Positions 461 to 29,048 of a stretch of DNA of 64,000 nucleotides are shown piece after piece (position 1 is the stretch's first letter; every line of letters starts with the position of its first letter). The position numbers and the translations under genes are program-made. Below the pieces are notes generated by a model that did no database searches, was not told the origin of the DNA, and saw nothing but the letters and a program-made list of their open reading frames with translations. The stretch lies in the NCBI GenBank assembly GCA_041665345.1, contig JBAYJA010000001.1, positions 329,206 to 393,205 of the forward strand, given 5' to 3'. The stretch is from Patescibacteria group bacterium. Its GTDB lineage: Bacteria; Patescibacteriota; Patescibacteriia; PEXW01.

Positions 461-1000
461 ATGAGAAGTATGCACAGAATCCTAAAAAACACAGCCATTT
501 GTGTGCTTGGCCTGGTTTTTGTCGTTGGTTTGGCTGGGTGCAAATCAGCGGCGGATAACGCGGTTGAGAAGGCAATTGAGCAAACCACGGGCACGGACGC
601 TGAGGTAGATGCTAGTCAAAACAAGGTGGCAATTAACGTCAATGGAACCAGTTGGGTAACGGGTGATGCAGTGAGTTTACCCACGAATTTTCCGGAGGAT
701 ATTTACGTTGCGGAAGGAACCATCAAAGTTGCAATTGCTAGTAATGAAACCCAGGGATTTACCGTCTCACTGGAGAGCACGCAGAGTGTGGCTGATTTGA
801 AGGCTGCGTACCTTAAAGAATTGGTGGCAGATGGTTGGACAATCACCGGTTCCTACGATATCCAAGGGGCGTCTTCTGTCATGGCCACGAAAGCCAAGCG
901 GTCTACGACTATCACGCTGGGTGCAAACGAAGATAAGTCCAAAACCGTGGTGGGCATTAATACGTACACAGACACGAGCCCCGCAGCGCCGAGTAATTAG
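461..1000 (+). CDS. putative lipoprotein (signal peptide with lipobox LAGC)
   Basis: N-terminal hydrophobic segment followed by L-A-G-C lipobox; no recognisable catalytic motif. Confidence 0.55.
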   Translation: MRSMHRILKNTAICVLGLVFVVGLAGCKSAADNAVEKAIEQTTGTDAEVDASQNKVAINVNGTSWVTGDAVSLPTNFPEDIYVAEGTIKVAIASNETQGFTVSLESTQSVADLKAAYLKELVADGWTITGSYDIQGASSVMATKAKRSTTITLGANEDKSKTVVGINTYTDTSPAAPSN

Positions 1001-1846: not shown

Positions 1847-2524
1847 TTGAAAAAATGGATAGGTTTTATCGCCGTTGTCTGGTTCGTATGGCCCGTGATG
1901 CTTTTTGCAGATTTACGCATCGTCACGGTGGCAGACGATGAAACACAGGTCGACAGTACCATGGGCGTATTTGTTGCTCGAAAAATTCACCTTGAGAAGA
2001 CGCTTTGGCTAAACTTGGAGAAGCGCTGCGCACAAGTTGATACTAAACTTGGGAGTAAGGATGAGGGGTCAAGTCTCATTTTTGCAGATTCTCTGCTGGT
2101 GCAATACAGAAAATTTCAACAGTTTGAAGTCTACACTCGGACCGTCGAGCCACCATCTCAGCCCGCTCCCGAAGAGTTTTCAGGTGGTTTAGGTATACTT
2201 TCTGAGGTTACCTTTACTGTAGATACAACTGACTCGCAACAAATCATTTGCTCCTTTCTGTGTCAGCAAATCATTTCCACAAGAATTGAGGCTGAGGATA
2301 CGCTGACGCACACCGTATGGGTCACCGATGAGATTTGCCTACCTGCTTGGGTGAGCAATTTGCTTGATGTCGGACTGAAGCACCGTACGAAAGGCTTACC
2401 CCTGCGTACGATATACATTTCAAAACATCAGTACATTTTGCAAGAGGTAATCTCAGTGACGGAAGATGTGCCCCCACCCGATACATACGTCATCCCCGTA
2501 CACTACTCCGATTTTACGCAGTAA
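1847..2524 (+). CDS. hypothetical membrane-anchored protein (TTG start)
   Basis: ORF with N-terminal TM helix (WIGFIAVVWFVWPVMLF); no recognised domain. Confidence 0.45.
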   Translation: MKKWIGFIAVVWFVWPVMLFADLRIVTVADDETQVDSTMGVFVARKIHLEKTLWLNLEKRCAQVDTKLGSKDEGSSLIFADSLLVQYRKFQQFEVYTRTVEPPSQPAPEEFSGGLGILSEVTFTVDTTDSQQIICSFLCQQIISTRIEAEDTLTHTVWVTDEICLPAWVSNLLDVGLKHRTKGLPLRTIYISKHQYILQEVISVTEDVPPPDTYVIPVHYSDFTQ

Positions 2525-2530
2525 TTTTAT

Positions 2531-2559
2531 ACCCCGCACATTCTTGTGTGGGGTTTTTT
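2531..2559 (+). terminator. rho-independent terminator
   Basis: ccccgcaca-ttctt-gtgtgggg hairpin followed by TTTTTT. Confidence 0.75.
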
Positions 2560-2575
2560 AAACTTTACCTTTGGG

Positions 2576-2583
2576 TGTATAAT
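2576..2583 (+). promoter_or_regulatory. extended -10 (TGTATAAT) promoter element upstream of heliorhodopsin
   Basis: TG immediately 5' of TATAAT, about 33 nt upstream of the ATG at 2616. Confidence 0.45.
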
Positions 2584-2615
2584 TCTGTTATTCAAAAATT
2601 CTAACACCAACGTCC

Positions 2616-3407
2616 ATGAAAATGCCAAGCCTCACCACCCAAGCAACCAAACTCCATCGCCTTCGCCGGTTTAACGGCGTCATGGCCATTTTGCACTTGG
2701 CGCAGGGTTTCCTCATGCTCTTCCTCAGCAGCGACTTTAGCTTGCCCCTGACCACGGCGTACGTGGAGATGGACAGGACGACAAACCTGCTGACCCCAGT
2801 ACTGAAGACTATTGGAGAGTGGCGCATTGGGCCGCTTGTCGCAGGCTTCTTGTTTTTGTCAGCGATCGCGCACGCGCTCATTGCCTTTGTGCCAGGAATC
2901 AACAAGTGGTACAACGAGAATCTCGCAAAGGGCATTAATCCTGCCCGATGGATTGAGTATGCCTTTTCTAGTTCACTGATGATGGTTGTGGTGGTCATGC
3001 TCACAGGCATGTACGACGTGAGTAGTCTGTTGCTCATCTTCTTCCTGAACATGATGATGATCCTCTTCGGCTGGGTTATGGAACTACACAACCAGACCAC
3101 GAAGAAAACAGATTGGACCAGTTACATCTTTGGATGTCTCGCCGGTGCAATCCCGTGGATTGTCGTGGCGCTCTATTTATTCAACGCCGGCGGAGAAGCT
3201 GGACGTGCCCCAACCTTCGTGTACTGGATTTTCTTCTCCATCTTCCTGTTCTTCAATGTCTTTGCGGTGAACATGATTTTGCAGTACAAAAAAGTTGGGA
3301 AGTGGAAAGACTACCTCTACGGCGAGCGAGCCTACATCATCTTGAGTTTGGTCGCCAAGTCCCTGCTGGCCTGGCAGGTCTTTGCTGGTACCCTGCGACC
3401 AGTGTGA
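2616..3407 (+). CDS. heliorhodopsin (7-TM retinal protein, inverted topology family)
   Basis: 263 aa. Strong similarity to heliorhodopsin 48C12 along the whole length: FNGVMAILHLAQGFLM, WIEYAFSSSLMMVVV, MMMILFGWVMELH, FGCLAGAIPWIVV, and the C-terminal GERAYIILSLVAKSLLAWQVFAGTL containing the retinal Schiff-base lysine. Confidence 0.85.
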   Translation: MKMPSLTTQATKLHRLRRFNGVMAILHLAQGFLMLFLSSDFSLPLTTAYVEMDRTTNLLTPVLKTIGEWRIGPLVAGFLFLSAIAHALIAFVPGINKWYNENLAKGINPARWIEYAFSSSLMMVVVVMLTGMYDVSSLLLIFFLNMMMILFGWVMELHNQTTKKTDWTSYIFGCLAGAIPWIVVALYLFNAGGEAGRAPTFVYWIFFSIFLFFNVFAVNMILQYKKVGKWKDYLYGERAYIILSLVAKSLLAWQVFAGTLRPV

Positions 3408-3419
3408 TAATAGTTTTCT

Positions 3420-3788
3420 ATGGATGATCTTCAACCTGTCCAATCTTTACCAAAAAAGAGACATCTGCTCCGCTTACTATTCCTCAGTATTCTTGGAGTT
3501 GTTTGTATTGCCGCATTGCTGGGGGTAATGTATTGGAAGGATGTTTTTCCTTTCAACCTGCGCAATAGCATAGATGTAACAATTTTTGGTTTTGGGAATA
3601 ATCAAGAAATATCGACAACTTTGGGCTTAGGTGAAACAACGTGTAGTTTTTTACAAGGCGTTAGTCCCACATCACCAGTAACAACTTTTGATATTCAGGC
3701 ACAGTACGGCACAATTGGACCCAATGAATGCAGTGATAAGAACAAATTTTGCGTGCCAGGATGCGTGGCTTCGTTGGTTCAGCAGTAG
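3420..3788 (+). CDS. small membrane-anchored protein; possibly continues in another frame to 3934 (frameshift?)
   Basis: Starts 12 nt after heliorhodopsin stop; N-terminal TM (LLFLSILGVVCIAALLGV). A second frame is open 3737-3934 and its stop overlaps the start of the next gene (GTGA). Confidence 0.45.
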   Translation: MDDLQPVQSLPKKRHLLRLLFLSILGVVCIAALLGVMYWKDVFPFNLRNSIDVTIFGFGNNQEISTTLGLGETTCSFLQGVSPTSPVTTFDIQAQYGTIGPNECSDKNKFCVPGCVASLVQQ

Positions 3789-3930
3789 TAACACAAAATG
3801 AATTTGTCCATCCTTTCAAGTACACGGCACCTATGGAAATGCCGGCATCTGGTAGCGATACAGTACAAGTAGTGCTCCAAGATGAACGCGGCCATGAAGT
3901 ACGTCGGGAGTTAACTGTGCAGTTGCAGCA

Positions 3931-4569
3931 GTGAATTTTCCTACAAAACTCAGCCGGTACCCTGCGGCCGGGGTAACCACACTCCCGATACTCATCGGGG
4001 GTGCACCCTGCGCTGGGAAATCGACGCTGGCAAAAGCCCTTGCCACTGAACGTGGTTGTGAAGTTGGGCACGTCGATGATTTGAGCGACGCCTTCAAGAC
4101 GGCCAAGGAAAATGAACGCCATAAGTACCCGTGGATGTTTTCGACGTACAAAACTACGGCGGAAGAATTTTGGGAAAATCGAACACCACGTGATCTCATT
4201 GCGGTTGAAGTTGCTCAGGCGAAGGAGTACTGGCCAGAACTCAAAAGAGTTATGCAAACCGGGACGTTTGGAATTCTGGAAGGTGTCTCTATCTTGCCAG
4301 AACTTGTGTGGAAGGAGTTTGGAGCTGCTATCCGTATGGTTGTCCTTATTGATACGGATTTATTGAGAGTGCGGCAGACAATCTTTACCCGGGGGATTTG
4401 GGACGATGCCAACACCTACAGTGACTGGGTGAAAGAGAAAGAGTTAGAGTGGGTGGAATTGCACAACGCTTGGTTTCGGGAGCAAGCAAAAAAGTATCCT
4501 TACCCACTTTTTGAAGTAGGGGATCGGGGACAACTACTTGAGCAAGCAAAGACATACTTTGCTGGATGA
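3931..4569 (+). CDS. P-loop kinase/ATPase (2-phosphoglycerate-kinase-like / AAA_33-like)
   Basis: Walker A ILIGGAPCAGKST followed by ...HVDDL...; GTG start overlapping the upstream stop. Confidence 0.45.
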   Translation: MNFPTKLSRYPAAGVTTLPILIGGAPCAGKSTLAKALATERGCEVGHVDDLSDAFKTAKENERHKYPWMFSTYKTTAEEFWENRTPRDLIAVEVAQAKEYWPELKRVMQTGTFGILEGVSILPELVWKEFGAAIRMVVLIDTDLLRVRQTIFTRGIWDDANTYSDWVKEKELEWVELHNAWFREQAKKYPYPLFEVGDRGQLLEQAKTYFAG

Positions 4570-4636
4570 ATAATTGACACTGGGTAAAGCGTGAGCTAGG
4601 ATGGACGGAAAGACAAAAAAAGCGTAGGAGGAAAAC

Positions 4637-5122
4637 GTGAATAAATTACTGCTGACGTTTGATTTTTCGGAACGCTCGTACCAGCGCCTTGAAAAATTAG
4701 TTGAAATGAGCCAGAGTTCCAGTCTGTCATCAAGTTCGGAGAAGAAAGTTGCCGTTTTAGAAAAAGCGCTTTTCTGCTTGGATGAATTCCTGGATCGAAC
4801 ATTCGACGGGTGGGAGCTAATTGAAACGCAGAATGGCCAAGAGACGCAGATTGTGCTTAGCGATGAGAGCTTAGGGGAAACCTTCACTCTGGAAGAAGTT
4901 TTCCAGAACGGAGAGGGCCGACCCTGGCGCTGTACGCTGGGGCTTGCTCCAGAAGGCGCTCGTTTCCTTGCCGACCTCACCGTCGAGTCTAGTAGTGCGA
5001 ACCGAGCAGAGATGCTCATGAAAGCTTTGAACCTGCTTGACCATCTGCTGAATGGTCAGCTCGATGGCAAACGCTATGACTTCCGGCTGAATGATGAGCG
5101 TGCCAATTTCGAAAATCTGTAA
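4637..5122 (+). CDS. hypothetical protein
   Basis: GTG start 7 nt after an AGGAGG RBS; Ser-rich N-terminal region, no recognised domain. Confidence 0.45.
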   Translation: MNKLLLTFDFSERSYQRLEKLVEMSQSSSLSSSSEKKVAVLEKALFCLDEFLDRTFDGWELIETQNGQETQIVLSDESLGETFTLEEVFQNGEGRPWRCTLGLAPEGARFLADLTVESSSANRAEMLMKALNLLDHLLNGQLDGKRYDFRLNDERANFENL

Positions 5123-5270
5123 GTACTTTACTCAGTCACCATGAACCGTCCACCTAGGGCGGTTCTTTTATACACCAACGTGCGGACTTGACATACTACA
5201 TTGGCAGTGGTAGGTTTCTTCATTACAACAAGAAGTAGTCAAAAAGAAACTTAAAAACCTAGGAGGATGT

Positions 5271-5525
5271 ATGGCATTAACCCAAATCTTGATTGCCCAC
5301 GAAACAGAACAGGGAGAAAAGGTTGAAGTGCCAGGGCGCATTTCAATTGAAAATGGAGCGATCTTTATCAGAATCGATGTGCCTAAGGAGGATGCAACGT
5401 TCCCAGATCGTTCTAAGGCGATCGAGAAACTGGCCAAAGACTGTGAGGCAAATGGTATCGAGCATGAGCTCCTTTTCGTCGGCCGTCTTAAGCTCCCAGA
5501 TTGCATCAAGATTTTTTGCAAGTAG
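5271..5525 (+). CDS. hypothetical small protein
   Basis: AGGAGG RBS before ATG; followed by a perfect terminator. Confidence 0.5.
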   Translation: MALTQILIAHETEQGEKVEVPGRISIENGAIFIRIDVPKEDATFPDRSKAIEKLAKDCEANGIEHELLFVGRLKLPDCIKIFCK

Positions 5526-5538
5526 TTCGGGCCAACAT

Positions 5539-5569
5539 ACCGAGGAACGTACGTTCCTCGGCTTTTTTT
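5539..5569 (+). terminator. rho-independent terminator
   Basis: ccgaggaacgt/acgttcctcgg perfect 11-bp stem followed by TTTTTTT. Confidence 0.85.
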
Positions 5570-5602
5570 GTTTGCACGGGTCTGAAGTAGAGATGACTAC
5601 CC

Positions 5603-5631
5603 TTGACAAAAAGCCGGTTTTGCTGTAGTAT
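5603..5631 (+). promoter_or_regulatory. sigma70-like promoter TTGACA-N17-TAGTAT
   Basis: Consensus -35 and near-consensus -10 with 17-nt spacer; about 100-nt leader before the GGAG-ATG at 5737. Confidence 0.5.
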
Positions 5632-5736
5632 CTGGGGTTAGAGAAAAATAGGCGTCTGGGATTATCTGTCTTGCCCGGACCGCCGCCATGCGTCAAAAGA
5701 CAGCCAACACCAACAGCGCATGGCACGGAGTCTTTC

Positions 5737-6210
5737 ATGTTCCTTTCAAACCTATTTAATCGCCAACGCTTCGCAGCGTTGCCTGGTAGAGTCATATTAA
5801 CAATCAGGAATTGGGCAAAGCTCGTGTTGCTCAAGTCGTTAGGCGCTGAGCGTCTAAGTAAGCTCGGTTTCTGGTTTACAAAGCTGAGCGGCATATCTGA
5901 AGACCGGCCATTTGGCTGGGATTCGAATTTACGCATCACTGAGAGATTCTGGGCTTCCCCAACAGTAACTGACGGTCGGTTCTTTGAGGTGAGCGAGCCG
6001 GTGACAACATTGGCAATTCTTTCATTTTCAGCGCCCTCCACGCAGCTGGACAAGCAAACACCATTGGTGAAGGAACTCTTCAAAATCCAGGGAGTGAAGT
6101 CCATTACTATCACTCCTTATCAGATTTTAGTTCAGTGGTCAGCGGTTTTTGGGCTTAAGGAGATGTGTCCGAAAATCCATGCCGTACTTCATAAGCACCT
6201 TTCCGTCTAA
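5737..6210 (+). CDS. Nfu_N (NifU N-terminal-like scaffold) domain protein
   Basis: C-terminal ELFKIQGVKSITITPYQILVQ...W..VFGLKE matches Nfu_N motif LFxIxGVxSVFFGPDFITV; start chosen at the ATG with GGAG RBS (the ORF is open from 5671). Confidence 0.5.
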   Translation: MFLSNLFNRQRFAALPGRVILTIRNWAKLVLLKSLGAERLSKLGFWFTKLSGISEDRPFGWDSNLRITERFWASPTVTDGRFFEVSEPVTTLAILSFSAPSTQLDKQTPLVKELFKIQGVKSITITPYQILVQWSAVFGLKEMCPKIHAVLHKHLSV

Positions 6211-6222
6211 GTAGACAAGCAA

Positions 6223-6254
6223 ACCCGTGTAGCCTCCTGCTGCACGGGTTTTTT
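6223..6254 (+). terminator. rho-independent terminator
   Basis: cccgtg...cacggg hairpin followed by TTTTTT. Confidence 0.75.
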
Positions 6255-6322
6255 CGTACTGCAAATTTTTTTCACACCCCCTTCACAGTGAAGGCGTACG
6301 CTTAGGGTATTCGCAATTCATT

Positions 6323-7006
6323 TTGACACGCATGGCTGACATCATACAGGTGCACCAGGTTTCCAAAGTGTACCAGGACGGGGATCGACAGATTAAGGCG
6401 TTAGATAACATAAGCTTGAAGGTAGCAGAAGGGGAGAGTGTAGCGATTGTGGGTTCATCCGGCAGTGGGAAGTCCACCCTGCTGCAGCTGGTAGGTGGGT
6501 TGGATACGCCAACCAGCGGGGAGATTACCGTGGGTGGGCAGCAGTTAGCTGAACTCTCGGACGACAGTCTATCCACCTTCCGGAACAAGACCATTGGGTT
6601 TGTCTTCCAGTTTTTTCATTTACATGATTACCTGACTGCGCAGGAGAACGTGGCACTGCCGTTGCAACTGGGCGGGGTGCACAGCGGAGAAGCCATGCGG
6701 CAGGCCAAAGTGATGCTGCAGAAAGTGCACCTGGAAGACCGGGCCAACCACAAACCCAAGATGATGAGCGGGGGTGAAATGCAGCGGGTGGCGATTGCTC
6801 GCGCATTGGTGAACAATCCGCAGGTAATTTTGGCAGACGAGCCAACCGGGAATTTGGACAAGCAGAATGCACTCTCGGTTTTGGATGCCTTTGACGAAAT
6901 TGCGCGCTCCGGGGTGAGCGTGGTTATTATTACGCACGATGAATCTATCAAGCAGCGATTCAGCCGGGTGATCCGCTTGGACAAGGGAGCGCTGGTAAAA
7001 TTCTAA
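6323..7006 (+). CDS. ABC transporter ATP-binding protein (MacB/LolD/FtsE-type)
   Basis: Walker A GSSGSGKST, signature LSGGEMQRVAIARAL, Walker B ILADEPTGNLD. Confidence 0.9.
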   Translation: MTRMADIIQVHQVSKVYQDGDRQIKALDNISLKVAEGESVAIVGSSGSGKSTLLQLVGGLDTPTSGEITVGGQQLAELSDDSLSTFRNKTIGFVFQFFHLHDYLTAQENVALPLQLGGVHSGEAMRQAKVMLQKVHLEDRANHKPKMMSGGEMQRVAIARALVNNPQVILADEPTGNLDKQNALSVLDAFDEIARSGVSVVIITHDESIKQRFSRVIRLDKGALVKF

Positions 7007-7010
7007 ATCT

Positions 7011-8849
7011 ATGATCTGGTCAACCATTGTTTCCCTAAACTTCAAGAAACTTCGGACGTACAAAGGCAAAGCCTTGTTTCTCATCTTGCCTGTGGCAATG
7101 CTCATGGTCGTGGGCGTAACTGTCACCAGCCAAGCCACGAATTTGTTGCACGCGGCTGAACAGCGTATCCTGGGGACTGCAAAAGAAGCAGCGCGTCTCA
7201 TTCAGCTGAGCCCCGCAGTGCAGCAGAGAACCACGTCAGGCGCGGGGGGCGGGCAGGCACAGTTCATTGGTGGTTTTGGAGAAGAGTACACGGCGAGTGA
7301 CGTGGACAAAGTTTCGGCTATCCCAAATGTATCCGCAGCCGAACTTGCGGTGGATGTGCCTGCTGGCCAAGCAACGACCAGTGATTTGCAGAACGGAAAA
7401 ACCCTTACCCTGGGTCAGCTAAAAAGCGTGGGGACAGAGGTGGCGAAGCTCTACACCAATCAAGACTTTTCCTATACAGCGGGGCAACCCATTCCTATTG
7501 TCCTCACCACCAGCAGTCTCATCCACCAGTACACAGATTGGGGCGGGAAGACGGAGGTGACGTTGGAGCTGGGTCGGCCTGGGCAGGGTCGGGGGCCGGA
7601 GCAAGCCTTGGCTTCATCGCCAATCAAGTTTGAAGCCGTGGAGCTGACCAAGGACGAGCTCATGGGCAAGGAATTTACCGTCCAGTTTGGCACCTTGGAA
7701 ACCATTCAAGACTACACGCAAGAGTTCACTGATTCGGGTTTGAAGTTTACAAAGCTCACGGACGCTGAGTTGAAAACCAAAGAAGCAGACCGAAAATCCG
7801 CGCTGAGCACGTACTGGAACTACGATGCACTAGCAAAGCCCCTGACGTATACCTTCAAAGTTGTAGGGGTGGTAGAAGTGGAAGGCAGGGGCGCGTCGTA
7901 CGTGCCCACGAACTTCGTGAATGCGTTGATGCACGATCTTATCCAAAAGCAGCTGAGCGCTCGGACGAAAACCGCTCTCCCAACAGACAAGCTGAACTCT
8001 ACCTTCACGGGCATGACCTACGACGGAGTGGAACTCGGGGGTGGCCAAGGCGGGCTCATGGGCGGTGGCATCCGCGTGGCTTTTGGCCAGCTTCGGAATG
8101 GTGCGCAGGAAACCACAGCGAGTTACGCGGTGCCTGGTTTGGTCATAAGCACCGAACGTGAGACCGGAGACGCTGATGCTTTTGCTCGCAGGTTCAGCGG
8201 AAGCGGTGGGACGGTCAAAGGTGTGGTGACGGATGCGGACGTTTTCACCAAGGCCACAGTTGCTTCGGACACCATGCTGGTGCAAATTGCCAGTGCAGAA
8301 AAACGGGCTGAGGTGGTGAAGGCCTTGAACAACGCTGGGTATGCGTACACTGATGTGAACGACTTGGAAGTGTACACGTCACTCCAAAATACCCTGTCCC
8401 GAACCGTGACCTGCGTGCTCCTTGGTTTCATTCTCATTACCGCGCTAGTGATCATTTTCACCATGGGAAAGTTCGTGGCCGAGAGCCGGAAGGAGATTGG
8501 GGTGTTCCGCGCCCTGGGCGCAACCAAGGCTAGCATCAAACAGCTGTTCCTTTCCCAAGCCGTGCTCTACACTGGGTTGGCGTATGTCGCCGGGGCGTTG
8601 CTGGGTATTGGGGTGACGCTTGGGCTTGCCAAAGCCGTGCAACTCTGGTTTGATAGGTTCGTTGGTGAGACCGTGCAGCAGACGTTCACCGTGGTGCAGC
8701 AATCCAGTGCCAACTCCTTTGCCGCGGTTGATTGGGCACGGTTTGGCTTACTCACCGGGTTGCTGTTCGTCACCACGATTATCGTGGCAATCATCCCAGC
8801 TGTCCGTGCGTCCAATGTCTCGCCAGTGCAAGCCATGAAGAGCGAATAA
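7011..8849 (+). CDS. ABC transporter permease, FtsX/MacB-type with large extracytoplasmic domain
   Basis: N-terminal TM1, about 400-aa extracytoplasmic domain, C-terminal FtsX-like 3 TM (VLLGFILITALVIIFTMG...GVFRALGATK...). Confidence 0.8.
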   Translation: MIWSTIVSLNFKKLRTYKGKALFLILPVAMLMVVGVTVTSQATNLLHAAEQRILGTAKEAARLIQLSPAVQQRTTSGAGGGQAQFIGGFGEEYTASDVDKVSAIPNVSAAELAVDVPAGQATTSDLQNGKTLTLGQLKSVGTEVAKLYTNQDFSYTAGQPIPIVLTTSSLIHQYTDWGGKTEVTLELGRPGQGRGPEQALASSPIKFEAVELTKDELMGKEFTVQFGTLETIQDYTQEFTDSGLKFTKLTDAELKTKEADRKSALSTYWNYDALAKPLTYTFKVVGVVEVEGRGASYVPTNFVNALMHDLIQKQLSARTKTALPTDKLNSTFTGMTYDGVELGGGQGGLMGGGIRVAFGQLRNGAQETTASYAVPGLVISTERETGDADAFARRFSGSGGTVKGVVTDADVFTKATVASDTMLVQIASAEKRAEVVKALNNAGYAYTDVNDLEVYTSLQNTLSRTVTCVLLGFILITALVIIFTMGKFVAESRKEIGVFRALGATKASIKQLFLSQAVLYTGLAYVAGALLGIGVTLGLAKAVQLWFDRFVGETVQQTFTVVQQSSANSFAAVDWARFGLLTGLLFVTTIIVAIIPAVRASNVSPVQAMKSE

Positions 8850-8854
8850 CCCAC

Positions 8855-9526
8855 ATGAAAATTCTCCTGGTGGAAGATGAAGAGAGTATCCGCGAAGTGG
8901 TGAAACGCTACTTGGAGCGCGCGGGTTTTCAGGTGGACGAAGCCGGGAGCGGACCCGTGGCTCTACTGAAAGCCAAGCAGGGATTTGATCTCATTATTTT
9001 AGATTTGAACCTGCCGAATTTGGACGGCGTGGAAGTGTGCAAGAAGATCCGTGAGACATCCAACGTCCCAATCCTCATGGCCACGGCACGGGTGGAAGAA
9101 GGCCAGGAACTTACTGGCTTGTCCGTAGGTGCGGATGACTACATCAAGAAGCCGTACTCACCCAAAGTGTTGGTGGCGCACGTCCAAGCTTTGCTCCGTC
9201 GGGCTAGCCAGCCGGGCAGCCGCAGCCGCGGGCAGGGGAGCATTACCTGTGATGACGAGCAAATGGCTTTGCGCCGCGGCGACGAAACCATTGGGCTTAC
9301 GGCCACGCAGTACCGCATTGCGCGGGCTCTGTTTACAAGCCCGGGCCGGATTTTTTCCCGCACCGAGTTGTTGGAAGCCAGCCGGAATGGGGACAGCGTA
9401 GGGGAGACCGATGAGCGGGTGATTGACGCGCATATCAAAAGTTTGCGTCGCCGCATTGAGGCAGACCAAGAGCAGCCCAAGCACATTCTCACTGTCGTGG
9501 GCGTCGGTTACAAAGCAGCTGTATGA
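8855..9526 (+). CDS. OmpR-family response regulator
   Basis: MKILLVEDEESIRE...DLIILDLNLP receiver domain plus winged-helix C-terminus; ATG at 8855 preferred over the longer ORF from 8732. Confidence 0.85.
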   Translation: MKILLVEDEESIREVVKRYLERAGFQVDEAGSGPVALLKAKQGFDLIILDLNLPNLDGVEVCKKIRETSNVPILMATARVEEGQELTGLSVGADDYIKKPYSPKVLVAHVQALLRRASQPGSRSRGQGSITCDDEQMALRRGDETIGLTATQYRIARALFTSPGRIFSRTELLEASRNGDSVGETDERVIDAHIKSLRRRIEADQEQPKHILTVVGVGYKAAV

Positions 9527-10644
9527 CATTCCAAATCTTCATTCGATCCATAGCATTCCGCGTTGGGGTGAGCGTTGCCCTGCTCTTCATTGTGCTGTTT
9601 GGGAGTTTGTACTTCTTCGTGGAGCGGCGCGGTGAACGAGCGTTTACCGATGTGGTGACCACCTGGAATGGCCGCTTTGGCATCATCACCCCGTTTGATG
9701 ATCCGCAGATGCCGTGGTCAAACCGCATTGCCGAGCCGCGCCAGGAGTTCCGCGCACGTTTCCGCAATTCACTCCTGTTCATTGGCGGGCTTGGTGTTTT
9801 GGGATCAGTGGCTATTGGTGCACTGGTCGCTTCCATGATCACCCGGCCGTTGCGGAAAGTGGGGGAGGGCATGCAGAAGTTGCGAGCCAGTGACTACAAC
9901 CACAAGCTTGCACCAGCTCCTGCTGCGGAAGTGGATGCCTTGGTCACAGAGTTCAACGCATTGACCGATGAATTGCGCCGGACCGATGAATTACGAAAAA
10001 CCATGATCTCCGACGTGTCGCATGAATTGGCAACGCCCATCACCAGTCTCATGGCGCAGCTGGAAGCCATAAGTGACCAAGTGGTTCCTTTGGACGTTGT
10101 GCGCATAGGGAAGTTGCGCACGCAGCTAGACCGGCTGCACAGCATGGTGGATGGCTTGCAAGAGTACACGCGTTTGCGCAGCCGGGCAGTGTCTTTGCAG
10201 CGGCAGATGGTTGACCTCCGACAAGTGGTGGACGCCGTGCTCAATACGCACGAGCAGACGATACGCACTGCACGCATGGCAGTCCATGTGGACATTGCGG
10301 CCGGTGCCACCCTGCAGGCTGACCCCAAATTGCTGGAGCATGTGCTGAACAATTTGGTTGCGAATGCATTGCGGTATAGCCAGGGGAAAACCCTTGCCAT
10401 TCGGCATACTCCCAACCAATTGGTGGTTGAAGATGACGGTGTGGGGATTCCCGCTGAGCACCGGCAAAATATTTTTGAACGTTTCTTCCGCATGGAGAAA
10501 AGCCGCAGCCGGGAAACTGGTGGGCTTGGTTTGGGGCTGGCAATAGTGAAGGAAATTGTGGAAGCGCACGGTTGGCGCATTCGGGCTGAGCAAAGCCAGT
10601 ACTCAACTGGCGCGGCTTTTGTTATTACTACACATCTTGGGTAA
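9523..10644 (+). CDS. sensor histidine kinase (2 TM, HAMP, HisKA, HATPase)
   Basis: H-box MISDVSHELATPITSL, N/G boxes in the C-terminus; start overlaps response-regulator stop (ATGA). Confidence 0.85.
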   Translation: MTFQIFIRSIAFRVGVSVALLFIVLFGSLYFFVERRGERAFTDVVTTWNGRFGIITPFDDPQMPWSNRIAEPRQEFRARFRNSLLFIGGLGVLGSVAIGALVASMITRPLRKVGEGMQKLRASDYNHKLAPAPAAEVDALVTEFNALTDELRRTDELRKTMISDVSHELATPITSLMAQLEAISDQVVPLDVVRIGKLRTQLDRLHSMVDGLQEYTRLRSRAVSLQRQMVDLRQVVDAVLNTHEQTIRTARMAVHVDIAAGATLQADPKLLEHVLNNLVANALRYSQGKTLAIRHTPNQLVVEDDGVGIPAEHRQNIFERFFRMEKSRSRETGGLGLGLAIVKEIVEAHGWRIRAEQSQYSTGAAFVITTHLG

Positions 10645-12610: not shown

Positions 12611-13150
12611 ATGTTCACACTTTTTTTGAAGATATTTAGCACGCCGAAGACTGTCATCCCCGTCCAGGATTTTGACCGTGAGCAGGCGGCCATTCTGGCG
12701 GTCGGTGAGCGGTTACAGGAGCAGGTGAAACGCCTCTTCCGTGGTTCTTTGGCTATTCGGCAGGTGGACGCTGGTTCAGACAATGCGTGCGAGCAAGAAC
12801 TCGTCGCCCTTGGGAATGCTTTCTACGATGTAGAGCGTTTCGGTATCCACTTTGTGGCGTCGCCGAAGCATGCGGATATGCTTTTGGTGACTGGCCCCGT
12901 AACCCGGAACATGGCTGAAGCATTGCGGCGAGCGTACGCAGCCACGCCAGAGCCAAAAATTGTGGTGGCCGTTGGCGATGATGCAATCAACGGTGGGATT
13001 TTCAAAGGGTCATATGCGACGCATGATGGCGTTGGGAATGTCATCCCCGTGCACTACCAGATTCCGGGTGATCCACCTACGCCAAAGGTTATTATTTACC
13101 ACCTTCTCAAAATTTTGGAAGGACTCGAAAGAAAACCCACACGCACCTGA
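12611..13150 (+). CDS. NuoB / [NiFe]-hydrogenase small-subunit homolog lacking all Fe-S cysteine ligands
   Basis: Clear NuoB-type alignment (FYDVERFGIHFVASPKHADMLLVTGPVTRNMAEALRRAYAATPEPKIVVAVGDDAINGGIF...PGDPPTP). The conserved CC, SMGxCA and PGCPP positions read ...DNACEQ..., AVGDDA and PGDPP. Confidence 0.8.
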   Translation: MFTLFLKIFSTPKTVIPVQDFDREQAAILAVGERLQEQVKRLFRGSLAIRQVDAGSDNACEQELVALGNAFYDVERFGIHFVASPKHADMLLVTGPVTRNMAEALRRAYAATPEPKIVVAVGDDAINGGIFKGSYATHDGVGNVIPVHYQIPGDPPTPKVIIYHLLKILEGLERKPTRT

Positions 13151-13155
13151 GCACT

Positions 13156-15204
13156 ATGCTAGCTAACATTGCTACACCACTGGGTTTCGTCGCGCTCCTC
13201 CTCCTCTTCACCGTTGGGGCTATCGGTGCTTTGCTCCTTCATCGGCATGACCACCGAGCGAATGTGTGGGGTAGTCTTTTCGCAATCGCTGGTTCGGTGT
13301 GGGGCGTGCTTTTCGCCATTGCGGTACTCGTGGGCGGAAATGACATTGCTGCGGCAGTGCAGCTTTCTCCTTTCCCTTTGTTCACCTTCTCCGTGCACAT
13401 CGACAAGCTTTCCGCTTTCTTCCTTGCGGTCATTTCGCTCATCGCGCTGTTCTCCTCTACCTATGGCATAGGCTACGTGAAGCACTACTACAAGCAGTAC
13501 AGCATTGGCGCCCTAGGTTTTTTCTACAACCTGTTCATCGCAGGCATGCTCCTGGTCGTTTCCGCGTCAAACGGGATTTTTTTTCTCGTCGCCTGGGAAC
13601 TCATGTCCCTTGCTTCGTACTTCTTGGTGGTGTACGACCGTAAGGATGCACAGAACGTGAAAGCCGGGTTCCTCTACCTGGTCATGACGCATGTGGGGAC
13701 GGCCTTCATTATCATCGCATTCCTCTTGCTCTATACCCACACTGGGTCGTTTGACTTTGCGGCTATAAAGGCTGGCGCCGTGCTCATCCCGGCATCTATG
13801 AAGAATGCTATTTTCATTCTGGCAATGGTAGGCTTTGGCACGAAGGCTGGCATCATTCCATTCCACATTTGGCTGCCGAGCGCTCACCCCGCGGCACCTT
13901 CACACGTCTCCGCCTTGATGTCTGGCGTGATGATAAAGACCGGCATCTTCATGATGATCAGGCTTTTCCTGGACATTCTCCAGCCTGTCCCGGCATGGTG
14001 GGGGCTGACCGTCGTGGTGATCGGACTTGTTTCGACATTGCTGGGCGTGCTCTACGCATTGACCGAGCACGATATTAAACGTTTGTTGGCGTACTCTAGT
14101 ATCGAGAATATTGGCATCATCCTCCTGGGCGTGGGGAGCGCCCTCACATTCACCGCTCTGGGCATGCAGCCCCTGGCGCTCATCGGCCTGGTTGCGGCGC
14201 TCTTCCATACGCTCAATCATGCAACATTCAAGTCCTTACTCTTCCTCAGCGCTGGATCAGTCATCAACCAGACACATACGCGCAATATGGAAGAGTATGG
14301 TGGGCTGATGAAATATATGCCACAGACAGCGTTGTTCTTTTTGGTTGGCGCAATGGCTATTTCCGCTTTGCCGCCCTTCAATGGTTTCTTCAGCGAATGG
14401 CTGACCTTCCAAGCACTTTTTCAGGGGATTGCGGCGTTAGATTTTTACGCAAAGTGGATTTTCATTCTTGCCGCTGGTTCTCTGGCATTCACCGGTGGGT
14501 TAGCATTAGCATGTTTTGTAAAAGCCTTTGGTGCAACCTTCCTGGCCCGGCCGAGGAGTATTGCAGTGACGCACACGAAAGAATCTTCCCTCTCCCTGCG
14601 TGTCGGTATGGCTGCCCTCGCAGTATTCGCCCTGGTGTTCGGCGTATTCTCCGGACGTCTAACTTCATTCCTCAATGGTGTTGGTCGTGACCTGCAGGTG
14701 TTTCATTCCTCGACCTCCTTCATTTCCATAAATACTCACCAAAATTTGTCGGCTGGGCATTTTGCCTTCGTGTCTCCACTTGCGCTCTTCGTCTACCTCC
14801 TCATTGCACTGGTCATCGTCGTGCTCGGGGTAAAGTACCTGGTGAACCGCAAGCAGAAAGTGCACCTTGGCGCCACGTGGGATTGCGGGACAGATTTGAG
14901 CCCGCGCATGGAGGTTACTGCTACCGGTTTTTCGCATTCTATTGTTACCATCTTTCAGCGAGTGCTCCGGCCCAGCATCCAGCACGACATTGAGTACCGT
15001 GATGACCAGAGTCGCTACTTGCCGAAATCCAGAACGGTGACGCTTGGGGTGAGCGATCTCTACCATACGTACATCTACAACCCAATTCACACATTAGTGA
15101 CTACTCTTTCCGAACGGACGAAGCATGTCCAAGGTGGGAATATCAACGTCTACCTCCTGTACATCTTCATTGCGCTGCTCGCCGCTCTCGTCGTGATTCG
15201 ATAA
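13156..15204 (+). CDS. NuoL/MrpA/HyfB-like antiporter-type membrane subunit
   Basis: 682 aa, about 16 TM, complex I subunit L/M/N family motifs (…GFGTKAGIIPFHIWLPSAH…). Confidence 0.8.
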   Translation: MLANIATPLGFVALLLLFTVGAIGALLLHRHDHRANVWGSLFAIAGSVWGVLFAIAVLVGGNDIAAAVQLSPFPLFTFSVHIDKLSAFFLAVISLIALFSSTYGIGYVKHYYKQYSIGALGFFYNLFIAGMLLVVSASNGIFFLVAWELMSLASYFLVVYDRKDAQNVKAGFLYLVMTHVGTAFIIIAFLLLYTHTGSFDFAAIKAGAVLIPASMKNAIFILAMVGFGTKAGIIPFHIWLPSAHPAAPSHVSALMSGVMIKTGIFMMIRLFLDILQPVPAWWGLTVVVIGLVSTLLGVLYALTEHDIKRLLAYSSIENIGIILLGVGSALTFTALGMQPLALIGLVAALFHTLNHATFKSLLFLSAGSVINQTHTRNMEEYGGLMKYMPQTALFFLVGAMAISALPPFNGFFSEWLTFQALFQGIAALDFYAKWIFILAAGSLAFTGGLALACFVKAFGATFLARPRSIAVTHTKESSLSLRVGMAALAVFALVFGVFSGRLTSFLNGVGRDLQVFHSSTSFISINTHQNLSAGHFAFVSPLALFVYLLIALVIVVLGVKYLVNRKQKVHLGATWDCGTDLSPRMEVTATGFSHSIVTIFQRVLRPSIQHDIEYRDDQSRYLPKSRTVTLGVSDLYHTYIYNPIHTLVTTLSERTKHVQGGNINVYLLYIFIALLAALVVIR

Positions 15205-15206
15205 CC

Positions 15207-16133
15207 GTGACCATTTTTTTCTCCATACTCCAGGCCATCCTCATTCCTGCACTCTCGCCGTTGGGTGTTGGCTTGGTGAGGAAGCTGAAAGCAAGGTTGC
15301 AGAACCGTCAAGGGGCAAGTGTCCTGCAGCCGTATCGGGATTTGTGGAAGCTTTTTCACAAAGATGAAATTATCAGCACTGACGCGTCGTGGATTTTTCG
15401 TTACGCGCCGTTCATCCTCTTCGCGGTTACCCTGGTGGTGAGCGCGAGCATCCCATTCCTCACGGCCATTCCCGGCAGCACATTGACGAGCGACGTACTG
15501 GTTGTCATCTACACCCTAGCCATTGGGACATTTTTCTTGGCCTTGGCGGGGATGGATACCGGTGGGCCGTTCGGCGGTTTTGGCGCCAGCCGCGAAATGA
15601 CCGTATCCGCGTTGGCCGAAGGTGGGCTTATTTTTTCGCTCCTCACCATAGCTTTGCGGAGCGGTACCACCGACCTTTTTGCCATGTCGAGCGCCTCACT
15701 CATCTCCACTACCAGCTCGTACGTGCCTGTGGCCATGGCATTTGTCGGCTTCTTCATTGTGCTGCTGGCGGAAACTGCCCGGTTTCCATTTGACAATCCA
15801 GCCACACACCTGGAACTCACCATGATTCACGAAGCCATGATTCTGGAACACTCTGGAAAGCGGCTGGCGCTCATGGAGTGGGCCTCAGCAAACAAGCTTC
15901 TCATCTTCCTCTCGCTGGGCGCAAACATATTCTTTCCTTGGGGCATCGCACATAGCTTTGGGTTCGCCGAAATGCTTGTGAGTATTTTGGTTTTTGCGGT
16001 CAAGATGCTCATACTCTACACAGCAATTGCAGTACTGGAGTCGAGCATTGCGAAATTTCGTTTCTTCCGCCTCCCTGATCTACTCATGGTTTCTTTCATT
16101 TTGAACAGTGTGGCTATCGCTTTTCTAAAATAG
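15207..16133 (+). CDS. NuoH/HyfC/HycD-like membrane subunit (GTG start)
   Basis: 308-aa polytopic protein with the complex I subunit 1 pattern; adjacent to antiporter-like subunits. Confidence 0.7.
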   Translation: MTIFFSILQAILIPALSPLGVGLVRKLKARLQNRQGASVLQPYRDLWKLFHKDEIISTDASWIFRYAPFILFAVTLVVSASIPFLTAIPGSTLTSDVLVVIYTLAIGTFFLALAGMDTGGPFGGFGASREMTVSALAEGGLIFSLLTIALRSGTTDLFAMSSASLISTTSSYVPVAMAFVGFFIVLLAETARFPFDNPATHLELTMIHEAMILEHSGKRLALMEWASANKLLIFLSLGANIFFPWGIAHSFGFAEMLVSILVFAVKMLILYTAIAVLESSIAKFRFFRLPDLLMVSFILNSVAIAFLK

Positions 16134-16134
16134 T

Positions 16135-16782
16135 ATGGACACTACCCCTGAGCAAATCCTCCTGACGATATTCTTCCTCACGATTGTGATGCTGCACATC
16201 GTGAAGAAAAACTCTGGCACAGCCATCCTCTACGGCCTACAATCTCTCACTGTCGTTCTGCTGCTCGTGCATACGTTTGCGGCTACCAGGGATATTTCCA
16301 TTCTCATTATTGCCGCCCTTCTACTTATTGTGAAAGTCATTCTTGCACCAAGTTTCTTCCTGCGTCTCATTCGGAAGCACGAGCTAAAATTTTCAGTCAG
16401 CACGTACGTGAACCTACCGTTGACACTTGTCATGGTAACCGTTCTGACAGCCATTGCGCATTCCCAGGTTTTTGGCCCACTCATCAACCACATCCCTGCC
16501 AATCAGCAGTACTTGTCCTTGTCCCTGGCTGCGCTGTTCATCTCTCTCTTCCTCATTGTGAATCGGAAGGGTGCGCTTTCACAAATTGTTGGCATCCTCT
16601 CGCTGGAGAACTGCATCGTTGCCTTTGCACTTTTTGCCGGTTTGGAGCAGTCACCCGCATTGCAAATTGGCGTCCTCTTCGACATTTCAGTGTGGATTAT
16701 TATTGCCAGCGTGTTCATCACCATGATTCACAGGCATTTTGGCACGTTGGACGTGACGGAAATGCGGCACTTAAAAGAGTAA
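16135..16782 (+). CDS. HyfE/NuoK-like membrane subunit
   Basis: 215 aa, 6-7 TM; size and position typical for hydrogenase-4 component E. Confidence 0.6.
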   Translation: MDTTPEQILLTIFFLTIVMLHIVKKNSGTAILYGLQSLTVVLLLVHTFAATRDISILIIAALLLIVKVILAPSFFLRLIRKHELKFSVSTYVNLPLTLVMVTVLTAIAHSQVFGPLINHIPANQQYLSLSLAALFISLFLIVNRKGALSQIVGILSLENCIVAFALFAGLEQSPALQIGVLFDISVWIIIASVFITMIHRHFGTLDVTEMRHLKE

Positions 16783-16786
16783 CCGT

Positions 16787-18229: not shown

Positions 18230-18230
18230 T

Positions 18231-28984: not shown

Positions 28985-29017
28985 GACCGGCAGAAATGTC
29001 GGTCTTTTCTTATTTTT
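28985..29017 (+). terminator. rho-independent terminator
   Basis: gaccggcag-aaa-tgtcggtc hairpin followed by a T-rich run. Confidence 0.7.
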
Positions 29018-29048
29018 GCATTTTCACCAGGGAGCGTACACTGGCTGC

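Follow-up and report, generated by a model that had tools for sequence, protein, structure and literature searches.

The window, that is, the whole 64,000-nt stretch of Patescibacteria DNA that was analyzed, contains a heliorhodopsin (HeR) gene that is followed on the same strand by ORF2, the doubtful ORF2b, a gene for a P-loop kinase-fold protein, and ORF5 (Table 1). Together these form a unit bounded by the terminators at 2531-2554 and 5143-5165. The initial annotation described a compact three-gene unit of HeR, a membrane protein, and a kinase, and this description does not hold. ORF2 stops at 3788, 142 nt short of the kinase gene, and both ORF2b and ORF5 also lie within the terminator-bounded unit. 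The GTGA overlap with the kinase start that had been attributed to an alternative frame of the membrane protein gene is present, but the overlapping frame is that of a separate ORF of 61 codons (ORF2b, 3749-3934) rather than that of ORF2. Most of the ORFs of the window (51/62) are on the plus strand, and neither Rfam families nor tRNAs were found in it.

Table 1. Features of the HeR locus. Positions are those of the window, and L001 is the locus of the closest relative.
Feature	Position	Strand	Description
Intrinsic terminator of the upstream gene (1847-2524)	2531..2554	+	10-bp stem with 6 GC pairs, then TTTTTTAAAC
Promoter-like site	2555..2583	+	TTTTTA-17-TATAAT, read from the sequence
Conserved leader	2602..2613	+	TAACACCAACGT, shortly before the HeR ATG; 12/12 identical between the window and L001
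HeR gene	2616..3407	+	263 aa; PF18761, NF038020, alignment with TaHeR 6is6
ORF2	3420..3788	+	122 aa; N-terminal hydrophobic segment at about residues 16-39; 4 Cys
ORF2b	3749..3934	+	61 codons; frame differs from that of ORF2 and overlaps its end by 40 nt; TGA overlaps the kinase GTG
P-loop kinase-fold protein	3931..4569	+	212 aa; Walker A GGAPCAGKST
Relic of the HeR 3' end	3953..3976	+	GCCGGTACCCTGCGGCCGGGGTAA = AGTLRPG*; inside the kinase N-terminal extension, in a frame other than that of the kinase
Internal promoter-like site	4574..4602	+	TTGACA-17-TAGGAT, between the kinase and ORF5; 10/12 consensus, the best of the region
ORF5	4637..5122	+	161 aa, no family; strong AGGAGG Shine-Dalgarno; codon score 0.22
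Intrinsic terminator closing the unit	5143..5169 (hairpin 5143-5165)	+	GAACCGTCCACCTAGGGCGGTTC, then TTTT

The HeR ORF matches the entire Pfam heliorhodopsin profile (PF18761, positions 1-242 of 242; E=1e-100, 336.5 bits against a cutoff of 26.7), matches NCBIfam NF038020 (E=7e-103, 343.4 bits against a cutoff of 100), and aligns with the solved structure of TaHeR (6is6, E=1e-83). The alignment places SLVAKSLLAWQ opposite SLVAKSALAWQ of TaHeR, so that the Schiff-base lysine is kept, and places RWIEYAFS opposite RWFEYSIS, so that the counterion glutamate is kept. The counterion is numbered E107 in HeR 48C12, another HeR of solved structure (6su3), and E108 in TaHeR. Three features that mark members of the family are found, namely the full-length profile match, the SxxxK retinal lysine in TM7, and the counterion glutamate in TM3; SxxxK is the retinal-lysine motif that serves as a criterion for HeRs (PMC9166423). 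The gene has a codon score of 0.29 (mean of 25 training genes 0.24, sd 0.13) and a GC3 of 0.70. HeRs have already been documented in Patescibacteria (PMC9166423; PMC8612252), and there is nothing distinctive about this one: it is 75-80% identical to those of many uncultured Patescibacteria and 97% identical to that of L001, and its C-terminus, AGTLRPV, is the same as in its relatives. The initial annotation of this ORF as a full-length heliorhodopsin is confirmed by both profiles and the structure alignment, and these matches identify it with confidence as a bona fide heliorhodopsin of a Patescibacteria (CPR) genome. Homology implies that it has the inverted topology of the family, with a cytoplasmic N-terminus. 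Like the characterized HeRs, the protein is presumably a slow-cycling, non-pumping photosensor, and its retinal would presumably be taken from outside the cell. No blh or crt family turned up when another 40 ORFs of the window, most of them at least 180 aa long, were scanned with Pfam, which agrees with the earlier observation that the window has no retinal-synthesis genes.

Upstream of the HeR gene there is a perfect TATAAT at 2578-2583. It had been called an extended -10 box, but the TG at 2576-2577 touches the hexamer and is one base off the canonical TGnTATAAT register. The -35 element is weak, with 3/6 matches, and for this reason the site is absent from the list produced by a consensus scan of the window. 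The position of the site is conserved in L001, which has TTTTCA-17-TATACT at 8392-8420, and in both loci 33 nt separate the site from the ATG; outside the 12-nt leader the intergenic regions have diverged. No Shine-Dalgarno motif was found ahead of HeR, ORF2, ORF2b, or the kinase gene. The terminator at 2531-2554 marks the 5' limit of the HeR unit.

The signals expected of a single transcript from HeR to ORF5 are a promoter upstream, a terminator downstream, and none inside. The window scan found no plus-strand terminator-like site between the HeR stop and 5143, but the promoter-like site at 4574-4602 lies inside the unit. The initial annotation took the 12 nt between the HeR stop (3405-3407) and the ATG of the next gene (3420) as a sign of co-transcription. 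The distance is correct, but such gaps are ordinary here, as 17/45 same-strand neighbor pairs in the window are at most 15 nt apart. The case for co-transcription lies instead in the uninterrupted stretch up to the terminator and in the orthology of that terminator, described below, and on these grounds HeR and the genes that follow it are probably co-transcribed. The promoters and terminators of CPR bacteria are poorly characterized, and this assignment is made from sequence alone.

ORF2 has no detectable relatives. A word-indexed search of 5.8 billion clustered proteins and an exhaustive phmmer search of 1.84 billion representatives recovered only ORF2 itself, the latter adding nothing but short repeat-like matches within giant proteins. 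It belongs to no family in Pfam, NCBIfam, PADLOC, or PHROG, and it is missing from all 177 related loci. A conserved partnership of this membrane protein with HeR thus finds no support in anything that was searched. ORF2b likewise has no Pfam or NCBIfam family and no homolog, and a fused ORF2+ORF2b query, made with a frameshifted gene in mind, has ORF2 itself as its sole match. It is quite possible, although somewhat less likely than not, that both are reading frames that arose by chance within inserted spacer DNA, decaying or of foreign origin, that separates HeR from the kinase, in which case there would be no such membrane protein. Besides the lack of homologs, the codon scores point this way (-0.05 for ORF2 and -0.06 to -0.12, about -0.1, for ORF2b), as no lower score occurs among the 25 training genes, whose mean is 0.24. 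So do the GC3 values of 0.36 and 0.42, as compared with about 0.5-0.7 in the neighboring genes, a local dip in GC content to 0.39-0.44 at ORF2, the missing Shine-Dalgarno motifs, and the fact that the two ORFs overlap each other out of frame. On the other hand, the HeR and kinase genes are also without Shine-Dalgarno motifs, the frame of each ORF is the best of six by codon score, and ORF2, which carries the NCBI annotation hypothetical protein, has a plausible signal-anchor segment as well as four cysteines. No significant RNA structure signal was detected in 3786-3935 (z=0.6). The protein-coding status of ORF2 is uncertain and that of ORF2b is doubtful. A noncoding spacer would alter the parts list of the locus but would be compatible with the insertion proposed below.

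The kinase is a member of a P-loop protein family (about 200 aa) that is widespread in CPR bacteria and occurs in many unrelated gene contexts; nearly all of its 47 homologs are from Patescibacteria or CPR. The Walker A segment GGAPCAGKS is invariant across the family, as are D49, E117-G118, R154-G155-x-W157, Y163, and E171. Residues 1-17 are a lineage-specific extension that has no counterpart in the homologs. Matches to the Pfam families AAA_28, AAA_18, and AAA_33 are weak (25.1, 24.3, and 21.7 bits) and fall just under the gathering cutoffs, and a profile of 26 homologs matches PDB sequences in the P-loop alone. The AF2 model (pLDDT 93.5) predicts a P-loop NMP-kinase-like fold. The top Foldseek matches to this model in the PDB are dTMP, adenylate, and dephospho-CoA kinases and Fap7 (probability 1.0, TM 0.42-0.55), so that the nearest solved structures, with a TM of about 0.5, are only generic NMP-kinase folds. 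The Walker A lysine and the invariant aspartate 19 residues downstream suggest that the protein phosphorylates a hydroxyl-bearing small molecule. Several of the homologs bear the automatic JGI name 2-phosphoglycerate kinase. They share the general P-loop type with that enzyme, but the name is untrustworthy: the match to COG2074 / PRK04220 has 22.5 bits against a cutoff of 343 and covers only P-loop residues 18-42, and that to PRK12337, also a 2-phosphoglycerate kinase, has 15.6 bits against a cutoff of 603 and again aligns the P-loop alone.

ORF5 found nothing in Pfam, NCBIfam, or PDB sequence searches, and its only PHROGs match is a weak one to phrog_8557. Its two halves are related to each other (E=8e-5), and we tentatively read it as a tandem ribbon-helix-helix fold. 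The single-sequence AF2 model is unusable (pLDDT 37.5). The gap between the kinase gene and ORF5 gives no significant RNA structure signal.

Comparison with L001 bears on how these genes came to lie behind HeR. The HeR genes of the two loci are 97% identical in amino acid sequence and 85% identical in nucleotide sequence, and L001 has no ORF2, kinase, or ORF5 at its HeR locus. Nucleotide homology between the window and L001 covers the HeR coding region (2602-3405), is then confined to the terminator, and resumes at the ABC ATPase gene at 6270-7064. In L001 the hairpin is at 9267-9289, 22 nt past the HeR stop, and reads GAACCGTCCACCCAGGACGGTTC followed by TTTTTTT. The pattern of the 5143 terminator is unique within the window (0 expected), and among the 177 related loci it occurs only in L001. 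The hairpin at 5143-5165 is the ortholog of this L001 terminator, which comes directly after HeR there, and since L001 lacks the genes between the two, the block at 3408-5140 is an indel between HeR and its own terminator. Of the six loci that have a HeR of 75% identity or more and 90 nt or more of sequence beyond it, five have a terminator-like hairpin within about 25 nt after HeR, compared with 17/425 random 90-nt windows. PADLOC and PHROGs give nothing meaningful that would make the block a defense or phage element, and no inverted repeats were found flanking it. Beyond the block, the minus-strand ORF at 5343-6113 is not homologous to the minus-strand gene of 231 aa in L001. No paralogy links the two 225-aa ORFs that lie upstream.

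The comparison covered 80 HeR loci from GTDB species representatives, in 78 of which the sequence runs on for at least 700 nt past HeR; tblastn detected the kinase, ORF2, ORF2b, and ORF5 in none of them (0/80). Conversely, none of 92 kinase-family loci (87 and 5 more) contains a HeR. In relatives with a HeR of 75-78% identity, what comes after it is a Na/Ca exchanger (Na_Ca_ex) or Cyt-b5 gene; over the relatives as a whole, the slot after HeR is either empty or holds a gene for AhpC, pyrimidine-dimer glycosylase, Na/Ca exchanger, or Cyt-b5. A neighbor with a more consistent linkage to HeR in this clade is a lipoprotein of about 180 aa encoded upstream. The neighbors of the kinase family are heterogeneous overall, and the homologs at 53-61% identity adjoin ABC-F and FAD oxidoreductase genes, GyrA, HTH/cupin genes, or DUF1428/DUF1801. 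The kinase therefore does not recur next to HeR across many genomes, as all 80 HeR loci are without it and a single other contig has it. This does not support the kinase/ATPase as a conserved partner of HeR, which the initial annotation had put forward as a possible functional lead. The absence of gene-order conservation in relatives, which that annotation named as evidence against its proposal, is largely what the neighborhood comparison revealed.

The exception is a 6.7-kb environmental contig (JGI sample 3300075153) in which a 75%-identical kinase (P0002) begins 1 nt after the HeR stop and is followed by AhpC. A second trace, although not a neighborhood as such, is in the window itself. Within the kinase N-terminal extension there is a short relic that is identical in 19/24 positions to the 3' end of the HeR gene (3384-3407, AGTLRPV*). 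Apart from the HeR gene itself, nothing else in the whole window reaches 17/24 on either strand (0.005 expected). The relic ends 2 nt before the codon that aligns with Met1 of the kinase homologs. No such relic was found in the other kinase loci. It shows that a tight HeR-kinase junction, confined to a very small lineage, predates the present arrangement, and the linkage of the two genes has therefore persisted or traveled as a unit. A duplicated HeR end could also result from misassembly, if the contig were a chimera of two strains, one of which had the HeR-kinase junction. The source is a metagenome-assembled genome, and the relic is as similar to the HeR alleles of other genomes (CGG CCG ... 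TAA) as it is to the resident allele. An artifact is nevertheless very improbable. The sequence directly upstream of the relic matches HeR only at chance level (8/30 and 17/60), and this is not a join inside a HeR gene; the 5/24 differences between the relic and the resident copy leave no exact k-mer to bridge them; and database entries place the HeR, ORF2, and kinase proteins together on one contig of about 697 kb and list each of them on two contigs.

The explanation that is favored here, and that is considered fairly probable, is that HeR has its own promoter region and terminator, that a lineage-specific block of cargo was inserted between them, and that the kinase is not a conserved partner and probably not an effector of HeR. 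In the lineage of the window, a 1.7-kb cargo of ORF2, ORF2b, the kinase, and ORF5 sits between the HeR stop and the HeR terminator, as an indel that is specific to this lineage and occupies a hypervariable slot behind HeR. Because of this placement, transcription from the HeR promoter most likely continues through the block, and ORF5 may have an additional promoter ahead of it. The adjacency of HeR and the kinase would then most likely be historical and regulatory, through shared transcription, rather than a physical or mechanistic partnership, and the two proteins would not be functionally coupled.

The main alternative is that HeR and the kinase form a real lineage-restricted module, in which HeR would modulate the kinase through light-dependent contact, as demonstrated for HeR with glutamine synthetase, photolyase, and an ABC exporter, or the product of the kinase would act in a light or oxidative-stress response. 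Two genomes with kinases just 75% identical have the two genes side by side, in one of them with a 1-nt gap and AhpC beyond, and the relic places a HeR end 2 nt before the ancestral kinase start. The GTGA start/stop overlap and the lack of an intervening terminator would fit coupled expression. In the literature the partners of HeR are diverse and clade-specific (PMC11109279; PMC8612252), and since the known partners are also lineage-restricted (PMC11109279), the narrow distribution would not by itself exclude a real interaction. A module is nonetheless judged unlikely. The L001 locus is without the kinase although its HeR is 97% identical and under strong purifying selection (97% amino acid versus 85% nucleotide identity), neither the 80 HeR loci nor the 92 kinase loci contain the pair, and all the other close relatives of the kinase (53-64% identity) are in unrelated contexts. 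In the window itself the pair is split by 523 nt that have no homolog elsewhere, and the original start codon of the kinase is lost. A bolder reading, regarded as quite improbable, is that HeR would be a light-gated regulator of a phosphotransfer enzyme, the uncharacterized P-loop kinase, in a small Patescibacteria lineage, with the junction and the relic as the trace of that module.

The function of HeR is debated, and conserved operon partners such as glutamine synthetase, photolyase, and an ABC exporter are the most productive leads to it. With the insertion of cargo as the preferred explanation, the P-loop kinase is a weak lead, as it lies in a variable slot, is known next to HeR from two contigs, and is missing from L001. 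It is also absent from published surveys of HeR neighbors (PMC8612252; PMC11109279). The partners with a demonstrated interaction, glutamine synthetase, photolyase, and the ABC exporter OmrDE, are lineage-restricted operon neighbors (PMC11109279). Cho et al. 2024 list ten recurrent groups: GS, NAD+ synthetase, photolyase, MerR, TerC, ABC transporter, SDR, alpha/beta hydrolase, DUF2177, and DUF2238 (PMC11109279). The kinase resembles these operons in being a lineage-restricted, same-strand neighbor that is probably on the HeR promoter, and differs from the recurrent groups in that the pair is limited to two known contigs and missing from the closest relative. Bulzu et al. 2021 tied HeR neighborhoods to oxidative-stress/UV repair and to histidine kinases (PMC8612252); the kinase of the window is of the P-loop small-molecule type, not a histidine kinase, and lies outside these recurrent classes.

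The relic is a small, clean example of gene-order turnover in reduced CPR genomes. The comparison of the 80 CPR HeR loci lends further weight to the published association of HeR with neighbors for UV repair and oxidative stress: the recurrent ones are pyrimidine-dimer glycosylase (7 loci, in 4 directly adjacent), NUDIX (6), MsrA (4), AhpC (3), response regulators (4), and ABC/FtsX (12 and 5). The window also has, 5-7 kb downstream, genes for an OmpR-type regulator and a HAMP-HisKA kinase.

The ORF at 2616-3407 encodes a heliorhodopsin (HeR) of 263 aa, as the initial annotation had proposed. Its product matches the whole PF18761 profile (Pfam, E=1e-100) and the NCBIfam equivalog NF038020 (E=7e-103), and it aligns with the solved TaHeR 6is6 (E=1e-83) with the retinal lysine motif SLVAK and the counterion glutamate kept (RWIEYAFS vs. 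RWFEYSIS in TaHeR). The source organism is a Patescibacteria (CPR) MAG. HeRs are already known from Patescibacteria (PMC8612252, PMC9166423), and this is a standard CPR heliorhodopsin of that known kind. When a further 40 ORFs of the window (mostly of at least 180 aa) were scanned with Pfam, no retinal or carotenoid synthesis families appeared, which bears out the earlier remark that the window contains no retinal-synthesis gene. GC3 is 0.70 in HeR, 0.66 in the ABC ATPase gene downstream and 0.36-0.54 in the flanking ORFs; the high value of HeR may stem from codon bias linked to high expression or from a separate origin.

Features of the window, with positions and, where assigned, strand
Feature	Position	Strand	Remarks
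Putative lipoprotein	461-1000		~180 aa
Two unrelated 225-aa ORFs	1025-1702, 1847-2524		
Terminator of upstream gene	2531-2554		strong
HeR	2616-3407		
ORF2	3420-3788		122 aa; N-terminal hydrophobic segment, 4 Cys
ORF2b	3749-3934		61 codons, other frame; 40-nt overlap with end of ORF2
Kinase	3931-4569		P-loop ORF
HeR 3'-end relic	3953-3976		reads GCCGGTACCCTGCGGCCGGGGTAA = AGTLRPG*
Promoter-like site before ORF5	4574-4602		good; TTGACA-17-TAGGAT
ORF5	4637-5122		fifth ORF of unit
Terminator after ORF5	5143-5165	+	next + strand terminator outside coding region
84-aa ORF	5271-5525		strong Shine-Dalgarno motif
Overlapping ORFs	5671-6210 and 5343-6113	+ and -	poor coding score
ABC transporter and two-component cluster	6323-10644		MacB-type ABC ATPase and FtsX permease, then OmpR-type response regulator and HAMP-HisKA histidine kinase
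Complex I/hydrogenase-like cluster	12611-19808		Oxidored_q6, two Proton_antipo_M, NADHdh, Oxidored_q2, fused 30-kDa/49-kDa subunit
IS200-like ORF (Y1_Tnp)	29016-29714		
Fic/DOC protein	32664-33344		
Second small P-loop kinase-like ORF	55322-55876	-	AAA_17/AAA_33

HeR had been described as the head of a three-gene unit with a membrane protein (ORF2) and a P-loop kinase. The boundaries of the unit are wider than this, since the terminator of the upstream gene and the next noncoding terminator enclose HeR, ORF2, possibly ORF2b, the kinase and ORF5. Upstream of HeR there is a perfect TATAAT (2578-2583), preceded across a 17-nt spacer by a weak -35 (TTTTTA), but the TG of the reported extended -10 box abuts the hexamer, one base off the canonical register. 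The spacing observations offered for co-transcription are correct in themselves: ORF2 starts 12 nt past the HeR stop, and the TGA of ORF2b overlaps the kinase GTG. Short gaps are common in this genome, however (15 nt or less in 17 of the 45 same-strand neighbour pairs of the window, where 51 of 62 ORFs are on the + strand), so the 12-nt gap carries little weight. ORF5 is preceded by the promoter-like site and by an AGGAGG Shine-Dalgarno motif, and thus may be expressed on its own as well.

The closest relative's locus (L001) carries a HeR with 97% protein and 85% DNA identity to that of the window. Nucleotide homology between the two loci spans the HeR CDS (window 2602-3405), ends at the stop codon and resumes at the ABC ATPase gene (6270-7064); ORF2, the kinase and ORF5 are all absent from L001. 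The promoter-like site of HeR lies 33 nt from the ATG in both (TTTTCA-17-TATACT in L001), and the leader TAACACCAACGT is conserved. L001 has a hairpin, GAACCGTCCACCCAGGACGGTTC plus a T-run, 22 nt past the HeR stop, and the window terminator at 5143-5165 is the same hairpin, GAACCGTCCACCTAGGGCGGTTC plus TTTT, located 20 nt past ORF5. This hairpin pattern is unique within the window (0 expected), and L001 alone has it among the 177 loci searched. The shared terminator, promoter position and leader indicate an ancestral unit of promoter, HeR and terminator. In the window, approximately 1.7 kb (3408-5140) sits between HeR and its own terminator, so that the HeR transcription unit contains an indel. 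The arrangement supports read-through transcription of the block from the HeR promoter, and the absence of the block from L001 shows that HeR can do without it. Six loci combine a HeR of 75% identity or more with 90 nt or more of sequence beyond it, and in 5 of them a terminator-like hairpin comes within ~25 nt after HeR, compared with 17 of 425 random 90-nt windows as background.

A second region without homology to L001 occupies window 5166-6270, where L001 has a minus-strand gene for a 231-aa protein with two TM segments. The plus-strand ORF at 5671-6210 matches Nfu_N weakly in its C-terminal part, and its N-terminal part is weakly similar to the gene upstream of the kinase in three loci (L174, L175 and L177). 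This ORF is possibly a pseudogene or a fusion.

Neither a word-indexed search (5.8 billion clusters) nor an exhaustive phmmer search (1.84 billion representatives) recovered a homolog of ORF2. The ORF is atypical, with a codon-usage score of -0.05 (gene mean 0.24, sd 0.13, minimum -0.08), a GC3 of 0.36 and a local GC dip to 0.39; ORF2b scores -0.06 to -0.12, and each of the two may be a spurious gene or a very recent one. Codon usage is normal in ORF5 (0.22), which belongs to no family found in Pfam or NCBIfam. ORF5 contains an internal duplication, its residues 29-58 being similar to residues 115-144 (E=8e-5). From the sequence pattern it is conjectured to be a tandem ribbon-helix-helix regulator.

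The kinase ORF encodes 212 aa from a GTG start and has the Walker A motif GGAPCAGKST. Its 47 homologs are nearly all from Patescibacteria, and the family invariants are GGxPxxGK[ST], D49, E117-G118, R154-G155-x-W157, Y163 and E171. Pfam matches to AAA_28, AAA_18 and AAA_33 are all sub-threshold. The JGI name, 2-phosphoglycerate kinase, was rejected, as PRK04220 scores 22.5 bits against a cutoff of 343 and matches the P-loop only. The AF2 model is confident (pLDDT 93.5) and bears a generic likeness (TM ~0.5) to dTMP, adenylate and dephospho-CoA kinases and to Fap7. The invariant Asp ~19 residues after the Walker lysine presumably points to phosphorylation of a hydroxyl substrate.

A conserved partnership of this kinase with HeR, raised as a possible functional lead by the initial annotation, is not borne out by the loci compared. 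In tblastn comparisons the kinase, ORF2, ORF2b and ORF5 are absent from all 80 HeR loci of GTDB species representatives (HeRs 56-97% identical; at least 700 nt downstream in 78), and HeR is absent from all 92 kinase loci (87 kinase-family loci and 5 more). Further HeR relatives (75-78% identity) are followed by a Na/Ca exchanger gene, or by Cyt-b5 plus PepSY_TM genes. Kinase homologs of 53-61% identity adjoin ABC-F with an HI0933-like oxidoreductase, GyrA, an HTH/cupin pair or DUF1428/DUF1801, and the neighbours of the family are mixed (serine hydrolase in 9 loci, IleRS in 7, RecO in 6, ABC-F in 5). Published surveys of HeR neighbourhoods are likewise without a P-loop kinase (PMC8612252, PMC11109279). 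These comparisons argue that the kinase is not a conserved HeR partner; the gene order in the window, a putative operon, is specific to its lineage.

The closest kinase homolog, P0002 (75% identical), is encoded on a 6.7-kb environmental contig (JGI sample 3300075153) in the order 182-aa PF27226 protein, 225-aa ORF, 265-aa HeR, kinase and AhpC, with 1 nt from the HeR stop to the kinase start. In the window, the relic is identical at 19 of 24 positions to the 3' end of HeR (3384-3407, AGTLRPV*) and is the sole other match of at least 17/24 on either strand of the whole window (0.005 expected). Of its five differences, three are silent in the HeR frame, and a stop codon is retained, so that the relic resembles the 3' end of a different HeR allele. 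Its end lies 2 nt ahead of the ACA codon aligned with Met1 of all kinase homologs, which reproduces the junction geometry of the P0002 contig. Together, the relic and the P0002 junction indicate that a tight HeR-kinase junction existed, in an ancestor or a donor. There is no HeR similarity directly upstream of the relic, and no HeR-end relic in the other kinase loci. The window junction is now split by 523 nt without a homolog elsewhere. The original ATG of the kinase is lost; the present GTG start lies 48 nt upstream, and the kinase reads through the relic in another frame, which adds 17 residues modelled with low confidence (pLDDT 58-72).

We lean towards a reading in which a standard CPR HeR is followed by a hypervariable slot, here filled by cargo for which read-through from the HeR promoter is probable, and in which the HeR-kinase adjacency, with two known contigs only, would be a historical and dispensable linkage. 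Dispensability is proposed because the HeR of L001, 97% identical and under strong purifying selection, persists there in the absence of the kinase. The same observation weighs against the main rival, a genuine but narrow HeR-kinase module, for which it may be said that the junction persisted across 25% kinase divergence and that proven HeR partners are likewise clade-specific (PMC11109279); on balance such a module seems rather unlikely, and an assembly artefact would be far more surprising still. The finding is of value chiefly as a negative result for the kinase lead, while the terminator and relic evidence record how the HeR locus was built.

Within 3.5 kb of HeR, the 80 loci contain a pyrimidine-dimer glycosylase (Pyr_excise) in 7 cases, 4 of them directly adjacent and downstream, NUDIX in 6, MsrA in 4, response regulators in 4, AhpC (AhpC-TSA) in 3, mostly directly adjacent, an ABC ATPase in 12 and a MacB/FtsX permease in 5. 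These neighbours agree with the published picture of HeRs in oxidative stress, UV and signalling. The ABC transporter and two-component cluster of the window lies 3-7 kb downstream of HeR, with an ABC ATPase gene in synteny with L001. Both histidine kinases and ABC transporters have been considered as HeR neighbours in published work (PMC8612252, PMC11109279).

The putative lipoprotein is encoded upstream of HeR on the same strand in the window, in L001 (7789-8331) and in most of the closest HeR relatives (also L002, L003, L005-L007, L038, L060 and L168-L170). Its homologs carry a precomputed Pfam match, PF27226 (AF_1845), and its linkage to HeR is much more consistent than that of the kinase. 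In the window the lipoprotein gene and HeR are separated by the 225-aa ORFs and a terminator. Further downstream, the gene cluster with complex I-like or membrane-bound hydrogenase-like subunits is notable for a reduced CPR genome.

Several HeR-bearing TPA MAG records (L001, L007, L009, L011, L013, L017 and others) are labelled 'uncultured Gammaproteobacteria bacterium'. By HeR and by synteny these records agree with Patescibacteria, and HeRs reportedly occur in monoderms only (PMC8612252); the labels are probably taxonomic mislabels.
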